A stretch of DNA of 64,000 bases from Escherichia coli (GTDB taxonomy: Bacteria; Pseudomonadota; Gammaproteobacteria; Enterobacterales; Enterobacteriaceae). A program made the translations under genes and the position numbers. The notes below the pieces were generated by a model that was not told where the DNA came from, ran no database searches, and was given only the letters and a program-made list of their open reading frames with translations. Positions 13,379-13,602 of the stretch are shown here, in pieces (within the stretch, counting starts at the first letter, position 1; each line of letters opens with the position of its first letter). The stretch lies in NCBI RefSeq assembly GCF_045037415.1, contig NZ_CP173438.1, one strand, 5' to 3'.

Positions 13379-13404
13379 AATAAAAAAGCCAGCATGTAGC
13401 TGGC
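13379..13404 (-). terminator. Rho-independent terminator (tR'-like) between the late promoter and the holin
   Basis: Minus-strand hairpin GCCAGC-TACAT-GCTGGC followed by UUUUUUAUU (plus strand aataaaaaagccagcatgtagctggc). Confidence 0.6.
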
Positions 13405-13566
13405 AACAGAGGGTTAAGCAATATCAACTCAACAGCTGAAGACACCCTGGCTGGGGTAGGTTGGAAGGCTACTCACCGTTCAGAAACAGAAAAGCCCAAG
13501 GCTTTAAACCTCGGGCTTGAATTTGGATTACTGCCAGTGCGTACAACATTGGCAAAATATCAGATT

Positions 13567-13602
13567 TACATAAAATATATGATTTTTAATCCAGTTTTGC
13601 AA
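13567..13602 (-). promoter_or_regulatory. Candidate late promoter (pR'-like) at the 3' end of Q
   Basis: On the minus strand, TTGCAA, 17-nt spacer, TATATT, overlapping the last Q codons; with the terminator at 13379..13404 this predicts a short 6S-like leader RNA. Confidence 0.4.

Follow-up and report, generated by a model that had tools for sequence, protein, structure and literature searches.

A putative phage 82-type late-gene control region in Escherichia coli, with an IsrJ-like leader and a structured RNA module at the entrance of the lysis cassette

The locus and its distribution

We analysed a 64,000-nucleotide stretch of Escherichia coli DNA (RefSeq assembly GCF_045037415.1, contig NZ_CP173438.1; hereafter, the window), focusing on positions 13,379 to 13,602, where, on the minus strand, the end of the gene for a phage-type transcription antiterminator, Q, is followed by a leader region and the holin gene. 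A preliminary description of this DNA had proposed a late promoter (pR') and a terminator (tR') that together produce a short 6S-like RNA downstream of a non-lambda Q. The Q gene (13586..14275) encodes a protein of 229 amino acids (aa) which is covered over its full length by PF06323 (E-value 2.6e-93), the Q82 family, one among three mutually unrelated families of Q proteins (PMC9388147). It is identical to Q of phage 82 (X92588) at 223 of 229 positions (97%; six aa differences) and to Q of phage 434 at 199 of 229. A closed nozzle characterizes Q21 and Q-lambda, and whether Q82 is alike is an open question in the field (PMC9388147); no relatives of the window protein were found in the PDB by sequence. 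The gene order ninB-ninE-ybcO-rusA-ylcG-Q is identical in the window and in the phage 82 record X92588, and downstream of the leader follow the first late gene, encoding a LydA-type holin (12959..13276, minus strand; PF16083, E-value 8.2e-22), a lysozyme gene and Rz.

The locus is common in E. coli. The 451 bases that were tested are 100% identical in phage PhiR47_2 and yielded matches in 1,182 of the 5,426 complete E. coli genomes, 789 of which carry at least 80% of the stretch. The interval between Q and the holin gene bears no annotation in the PhiR47_2 record or in the RefSeq genome that we inspected. Small open reading frames of 24–35 aa with TTG, GTG or ATG starts overlap the hairpins described below and are likewise unannotated in related phage and RefSeq records, and tRNA genes, such as those of Shiga-toxin (Stx) phages, were not found in the leader.

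A late promoter and pause element matching those of phage 82

The proposed promoter consists of the -35 hexamer TTGCAA (13597..13602; -35 to -30), which encodes part of the Q residues I-A-K, a 17-nt spacer AACTGGATTAAAAATCA (13580..13596) and the -10 hexamer TATATT (13574..13579), all on the minus strand. The reading frame of Q ends with ..ATT GCA AAA CTG GAT TAA, its stop codon (13588-13586) being located inside the spacer. Both the promoter given in the preliminary description (TTGCAA-17-TATATT, 13602-13574) and its overlap with the last codons of Q hence withstand scrutiny. The spacer, whose core AACTGGATT is conserved, is also the putative position of the Q-binding element (QBE), a placement adopted from PMC4914094. 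Transcription would start at 13567, the first A of an AAA triplet located 7 nt past the -10 hexamer, as judged from the AAA start of 82 pR' (PMC5001585) and from the fit of the downstream positions.

The wild-type transcript of 82 pR' begins with AAA, with slippage noted at the start, and its pause element is an extended -10 element which is nearer to TATAAT than that of lambda and located 9 bp further downstream. The discriminator of 82 includes GCC at +15-17, with G at -11 and a non-G base at -10 relative to the pause end; the pause occurs at +25, naturally a U, the next base is not G, and a one-base insertion at +18 would place G at the pause (PMC5001585). With A13567 as +1, all checkable features of 82 pR' are present in the window, including G at +15, non-G at +16 and non-G at +26, and the predicted sigma70-dependent pause signal (13542..13562, minus strand) comprises TG at +6/+7, TATTTT at +9 to +14, GCC at +15-17, G at +24, U at +25 and A at +26. 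This comparison, which had been suggested together with the original prediction, draws on the positions that PMC5001585 describes in words and extends through +26. No phage 82 record other than X92588 matched, and sequence strings from the window had no match in the searchable literature. Phage 82 and the window share, then, the promoter over the 3' end of Q, the AAA start, the extended -10-like pause element, GCC at +15-17, U at +25 and the gene order of the nin region; the likeness covers the leader to +26, and further downstream phage 82 itself may have the terminators of the window or another of the leader types described below.

Given that Q is 97% identical to that of phage 82 and that the features of 82 pR' are present, the Q-utilisation site should be the characterized 82 one. 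The preliminary description was right in assigning Q to a non-lambda class and in expecting a utilisation site unlike that of lambda, the predicted pause falling at +25 rather than at +16. Its 'different' specificity class can be amended to a known one: the protein is a phage 82 Q and the site appears to be the experimentally dissected 82 site.

Conservation was assessed in 80 IMG/VR loci with Q 87–100% identical to that of the window, supplemented with phage records from Klebsiella, Enterobacter, Salmonella and E. coli in which Q is only 60–69% identical; mean conservation was computed over 33 distinct versions. It amounts to 87% in the Q coding DNA from -70 to -36, 99.5% in the -35 hexamer, 91% in the spacer (-29 to -13), 96.5% in the -10 hexamer, 96.7% from +1 to +11 and 62% from +27 to +45. 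All 11 cross-genus representatives have TTGCAA, without a single substitution, the 17-nt spacer, the -10 hexamer, a 6-nt discriminator, the 5-nt start, TGn, TATnnT and T at +25. The -10 hexamer is TATATT in eight of the 11 and one base off in the other three, the start reads AAATC in nine, and the triplet following TATnnT is rich in G and C in all but phage 434, where it reads GTA. The block between -35 and +11 thus stays nearly invariant although the Q proteins diverge to 60–69% identity, and it is intact in the Salmonella prophage Gifsy-1 even though the IsrK/orf45/AnrP module is inserted there between antQ and the promoter. We consider the promoter to be real because it agrees position for position with 82 pR' and is near-invariant in the 33 distinct Q82-family loci.

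The mosaic junctions lie just outside the block, the first divergent position being +12 in Gifsy-1, +27 in a leader type carrying a DUF3800 gene and +77 in a third type. In the DUF3800 type (locus L025 of our collection, positions 2210-3215; also L029, L031, L032, L043, L061 and L062), homology to the window ends right after +26, and a reverse-oriented gene for a 267-aa DUF3800 protein comes next. This natural junction, one base past the pause site, would mark the downstream edge of the Q-utilisation block.

Two further signals overlap the promoter. A CII-binding consensus, TTGC-N6-TTGC (TTGCAATATCTTGC), is found at 13597-13610 on the plus strand, opposite to Q; TTGCAA being palindromic, the first TTGC of this site falls within the -35 hexamer of pR'. 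The equivalent site is annotated in the phage 434 record as a CII site with the -35 element of paQ. CII bound at 13597-13610 could both drive antisense transcription of Q and occlude pR'. The best promoter-like match in a 3-kb scan, TTGGCA-16-TAAAAT (13549-13576, plus strand; 10 of 12 positions), is directed antisense over the start and pause of pR', towards Q, and may be fortuitous because its -35-like part, by eye, is apparently not conserved in IsrJ-type leaders.

Two terminators and the expected short RNA

The leader is predicted to fold into a series of hairpins on the minus strand. Hairpin 1 (13531..13555; +13 to +37) is present in both the minimum free energy and the centroid folds, and IsrJ-type leaders have a hairpin of different sequence in the same place. 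It is followed by a first intrinsic terminator, T1 (13481..13518), with a 12-pair stem at +50 to +76 (13518-13492) and the tail UUUUCUGUUUCU, and by a second one, T2 (13379..13404), in which the hairpin GCCAGC-UACAU-GCUGGC (13404-13388; +164 to +180) precedes UUUUUUAUU, reaching to 13379. The hairpin of T1 is the stronger of the two (-17.8 kcal/mol, z-score -4.85, vs -10.7 kcal/mol for T2), and the RNA from +1 to +83 folds with -27.6 kcal/mol (z-score -4.5). Terminator-like hairpins are enriched overall (9 vs 3.0 +/- 1.6 expected). A consensus T1 stem across 17 diverse leaders retains eight pairs, three of them with compensatory changes, and T1 resembles the IsrJ terminator in position and partly in sequence. 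A local hairpin at +197 to +218 was considered as a third terminator and rejected; it is weak (-7.7 kcal/mol), is not conserved as such and is better regarded as part of the long-range leader domain described below.

The position of T1 is typical of the family. Across the Q82-family loci of E. coli, Salmonella, Klebsiella and Enterobacter, almost without exception, a first hairpin with a U-tract ends between about +49 and about +93: it occupies +28 to +49 in the phage 434 type, +48 to +71 in Gifsy-1, +48 to +75 in Klebsiella, +46 to +71 in Enterobacter, +48 to +67 in 606R7 and Stx2-PPompW, and +50 to +76 in the window type. Only in the DUF3800-insertion type does the first terminator come as late as +182 (+182 to +203).

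The GCCAGC hairpin with its U-tract, on which the preliminary description had relied, does lie where it was placed, 164 nt after the inferred start and upstream of the LydA-type holin gene, and the locus does appear to contain a late control region behind a Q of non-lambda type. T1, which is stronger than T2 and located between the promoter and T2, was overlooked, however, so that the first terminator had been misassigned and, because T1 was missed, the size of the RNA was mispredicted: instead of a product ending at the hairpin ~165 nt downstream of the promoter, the main RNA expected without Q is one of ~80 nt ending at T1, and a ~187-nt RNA would arise only by read-through of T1. For the late promoters of lambda, 21, phi80, 82 and P22, short RNAs that end at a terminator are on record (PMC7547250).

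The leader is related to IsrJ

The promoter-proximal transcript up to T1 constitutes an IsrJ-like region (13483..13570, minus strand). The Rfam family isrJ (RF01393) matches it end to end (13570-13491), with a score of 30.4 bits (E-value 0.0044) which is below the gathering score of 37; window-type leaders elsewhere score 27–28.5 bits. The same model reaches 100 bits in Gifsy-1 (L003:1534-1608), directly past the shared promoter block, and 54–73 bits in Klebsiella and Enterobacter phages (L084-L088 and L090, ~977-1097), in which the RNA starts ~15 nt past the stop codon of a Q82-family Q. The Klebsiella and Enterobacter leaders are chimeras that combine an IsrJ-type hairpin 1 with either the window-type T1 or a Gifsy-type terminator, and the Klebsiella leaders joining an IsrJ-type 5' half to a window-type T1 obtain 54–63 bits. 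We also built a covariance model, R1, from Salmonella, Klebsiella and Enterobacter leaders only, without any E. coli 82-type sequence. In the 64-kb window, it has a single match, 13570-13483, with 37 bits and, under a rough calibration, an E-value of ~3e-7. Homology to genuine isrJ members is therefore upheld by an independent model as well as by chimeric intermediates. From these comparisons, the isrJ family emerges as the promoter-to-first-terminator leader of Q82-type late promoters, with the window carrying what looks to be a divergent E. coli member.

IsrJ was detected as a 74-nt RNA which affects invasion and effector translocation, deletion having lowered both (PMC2330248). Gifsy-1 IsrJ ends at the terminator equivalent to T1. 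The Rfam family begins 3 nt before the start site of 82, and slippage at AAA could explain longer primer-extension products. The Gifsy-1 unit and the window share the promoter and pause block (91.5% identity over 47 nt), the single-stranded 5' end, hairpin 1, CAAAUUCAAGCC, and a terminator with its UUUUCNNUUUCU tail. By contrast, the sequences of hairpin 1 and of the terminator stem differ, and in Gifsy-1 an isrK/anrP (c4/ant-like) module separates the unit from antQ. The papers on IsrJ that were consulted make no mention of a late promoter or a Q-utilisation site, and a statement to this effect may exist outside the searchable literature; the Gifsy-1 example that has been given of an antitermination-regulated promoter is IsrK, not IsrJ (PMC7547250).

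These relationships would give IsrJ, a virulence-associated small RNA of Salmonella, a mechanistic origin, its promoter being the loading site of AntQ and its terminator a target of Q. They predict that deletion of isrJ removes the late switch of Gifsy-1 and that IsrJ-like RNAs are made in many lysogens of E. coli, Klebsiella and Enterobacter.

The kinship with IsrJ also raises the question of whether the T1-terminated leader additionally acts in trans on host mRNAs, as a small RNA of the IsrJ family and in the manner of StxS in Stx phages, with its 5' end fixed by the pause element in the DNA. Such a role would be compatible with that of a late-gene control region, and we regard it as rather unlikely. 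It is suggested by the homology to IsrJ, an Hfq-binding RNA according to Rfam, with the deletion phenotypes cited above, by the precedent of StxS as a regulator derived from pR' (PMC7547250), and by the first 11 nt of the leader, which do not vary among 17 aligned leaders and are unpaired in the predicted fold. The conservation of +1 to +26 is, however, fully explained by pausing and Q loading at the DNA level, the leader past +26 is mosaic and replaceable, and the tail of T1 contains only four consecutive U residues. StxS resembles the prediction made here in being a short RNA that lysogens produce when transcription from an antiterminated late promoter ends prematurely; the likeness is one of description, and StxS differs in that its Hfq binding and RNase E processing have been shown experimentally.

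Other RNAs were encountered around these leaders. In Gifsy-1, the isrK region within the antQ-anrP interval (L003:685-883) scores 69 bits against the Rfam family of the P1-type c4 antisense RNA and 48 bits against that of its a1/b1 targets, so that IsrK-orf45-AnrP looks like a c4/ant-type immunity module placed between Q and its own late promoter. In Klebsiella phages with Q82-type Q, the stretch that separates the IsrJ-like leader from the lysis cassette contains Rfam STnc100, at 63–104 bits, above its gathering score (L084:1179-1373, L086:1179-1371, L087:1177-1372). Several other loci have tRNA genes in this slot, and the window has neither.

A structured RNA module at the entrance of the lysis cassette

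T2 is immediately followed by a structured leader domain (13321..13377, minus strand), in which 13377-13365 pairs with 13333-13321 (+191 to +203 with +235 to +247) to form a 13-bp helix. In the window, this helix closes a conserved interior of ~31 nt, including ..GCUUUGUCGUUAAAU.., and the domain folds with -27.6 kcal/mol (z-score -5.0). Together, T2 and the domain (13404-13321, minus strand) make up a module composed of a variable GC hairpin, an invariant U6AUU, a covarying helix of 11–13 bp and a conserved interior ..GCUUUGUYGWUAAAU... Further copies include L095:1346-1432, L096:1305-1391, L086:1795-1879 and L089:1366-1450, among others. The T2 stems of other phages vary in sequence, yet all of them pair, and each is followed by the invariant TTTTTTATT.

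A pattern search recovered the module in 109 IMG/VR contigs, representing 37 distinct versions, and a blastn search in 65 phage records, including HK225, Gifsy-2 and ~46 Klebsiella phages. It adjoins a holin gene in all of the 40 listed among these 65 records, and in none of those 40 is it annotated as an RNA or a regulatory structure. The stretch between T2 and the holin gene aligns with noncoding DNA upstream of unrelated holin genes in Salmonella phage UPF_BP1 and mEp237. The module precedes at least eight unrelated holin-type first genes, by 31–71 nt, and its carriers are lambdoid phages of E. coli, Salmonella, Klebsiella and Enterobacter with different types of Q. A promoter core of the 82 type is present upstream in 72 of the 109 loci, with exactly the spacing of the window in 66 of the 72; 29 of the 109 lack such a core in at least 1.5 kb of upstream sequence that was checked. 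Neither the Rfam families, compared with the domain following T2, nor the literature, searched for a conserved RNA upstream of holin genes, provided a match or a relevant report, and the Q-S region of lambda yielded no significant match to either of the two RNA models built here.

The closing helix is recovered in all 22 distinct versions that were folded singly, despite differing arm sequences. In a MAFFT alignment not fitted to the structure, 85.7% of the cells are paired, compared with 25–52% for slid partners, and the covariation score of 0.300 is reached by none of 500 shuffles. An alignment fitted to the model and including copies not selected by the pattern, which leans towards the structure by construction, likewise has 85.7% paired cells (slid partners, 21–47%) and a score of 0.473 (0 of 500 shuffles); in this alignment, 10 of the 13 pairs are changed on both sides (39 cells, a number that no shuffle out of 500 attains).

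This distribution indicates that T2 is part of a portable module tied to the lysis cassette and not to Q. In our reading, T2 would be a terminator guarding the way into the cassette, useful where cargo genes with promoters of their own follow pR', and the structured domain probably acts on the late mRNA via stability, processing or holin translation. The broader proposition that an undescribed and widely shared RNA module guards the entrance of the lysis cassette, and that it may set the stability, processing or translation of the holin mRNA, and hence the timing of lysis, in addition to blocking read-through from cargo genes behind pR', is advanced tentatively, at somewhat less than even odds. 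A covarying structured RNA upstream of holin genes represents a concrete new candidate for the control of lysis gene expression.

Functioning of the control region and alternative interpretations

The region very probably controls the late genes of a lambdoid prophage of the phage 82 type, as indicated by identity in sequence with the characterized 82 system, conservation of the elements and the presence of the hairpins. A PF06323 Q gene lies immediately upstream, the early transcribed features are in place, and intrinsic terminators separate the pause site from the late genes, as in units of the phage 82 type. The late switch of phage 82 is well studied, its pR' being a standard model system for pausing that depends on sigma70 and for antitermination by Q, so the identification of the control region adds, as such, nothing new.

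By analogy with 82 pR', to which the promoter is identical in its checkable positions, host RNA polymerase with sigma70 would initiate constitutively at pR' (+1 = A13567). Sigma70 would then bind again at the -10-like TGA-TATTTT (+6 to +14) and polymerase would pause at +25, the sequence determinants of which are all present. Without Q, the polymerase would escape from the pause and stop at T1, releasing an RNA of ~80 nt that would correspond in E. coli to IsrJ of Salmonella, and the molecules reading through T1 would stop at T2 as an RNA of ~187 nt. Termination at T1 and then at T2 is supported by the conservation of hairpin and U-tract and by the detection of the Gifsy-1 homologue. During lytic growth, Q82 would bind the QBE in the spacer and join the paused complex, rendering the polymerase resistant to terminators, and the modified polymerase would pass T1 and T2 into the genes for the holin, endolysin and Rz/Rz1 and the remainder of the late operon. 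Binding, loading and read-through by Q82 are assumed here because they are established in phage 82, Q is 97% identical and the DNA elements match.

The general plan would be that of lambda, with a promoter that is constitutively active where Q ends, a spacer holding what is here a putative QBE, an early sigma70-dependent pause, a short terminated RNA and Q-dependent read-through into the lysis genes. Unlike in lambda, however, Q belongs to an unrelated family (PF06323 vs PF03589), the predicted pause lies at +25 rather than +16/+17, its element being shifted 9 bp further downstream, and two terminators, the first at about +80, take the place of a single tR'. None of the three hallmarks of a lambda-type pR'/6S unit (a PF03589 Q, a +16/+17 pause and a single tR') is thus present in the window.

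Several points weigh against the interpretation as a phage 82-type unit or limit its reach. For this copy, the start site, the pause, the 3' ends, the termination efficiencies and the action of Q all derive from homology. The promoter matches the consensus at 9 of 12 positions, and there are four such sites per 3 kb, compared with 3.1 +/- 1.7 in shuffled sequences. X92588, the record of phage 82, reaches only as far as the Q stop codon, and the comparison with phage 82 covers positions up to +26. The isrJ score does not attain the Rfam threshold, as mentioned above. Finally, as the U-tract of T1 is interrupted by C and G, termination there may be only modestly efficient and the split between the 80-nt and 187-nt RNAs is uncertain.

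The last of these points bears on a competing interpretation, in which the GCCAGC hairpin is the single tR', the main product in lysogens is one 6S-like RNA of ~165–190 nt, and T1 is a mere internal structure. The U6 tract of T2 is perfect, compared with the broken tract of T1, and a product of ~187 nt would be close to the 194 nt of lambda 6S RNA. Termination at lambda tR' occurs at +193 (PMC4914094). Against this stand the greater strength of the T1 hairpin and its location at the first-terminator position shared across the family. Moreover, the T1 homologue of Gifsy-1, with the similar tail UUUUCCAUUUCU, does yield the 74-nt IsrJ, and the T2 module moves together with the lysis cassette and is often separated from pR' by hundreds of nt. 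We accordingly judge a single tR' at T2 to be quite improbable. That the hexamers and hairpins are chance matches in AT-rich intergenic DNA, with late transcription beginning elsewhere, would accord with the number of promoter-like sites, which equals the shuffled expectation, but is scarcely credible in view of the position-by-position agreement with an experimentally defined promoter, its near-invariance across genera and the compensatory changes in the hairpins.

Other features of the neighbourhood

The holin gene has two candidate starts four codons apart on the minus strand, TTG at 13276 and ATG at 13264 (M-A-I-H-M), of which the ATG is annotated by RefSeq and the TTG in the PhiR47_2 record; they recall the dual-start holin/antiholin genes of related loci, with MKM and MRM starts. 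Just beyond Rz, bor/iss (11665-12006, plus strand) encodes a protein named by RefSeq as the Iss serum-survival lipoprotein, and a gene for an alpha/beta hydrolase (16124-17155, plus strand) adjoins the nin region.

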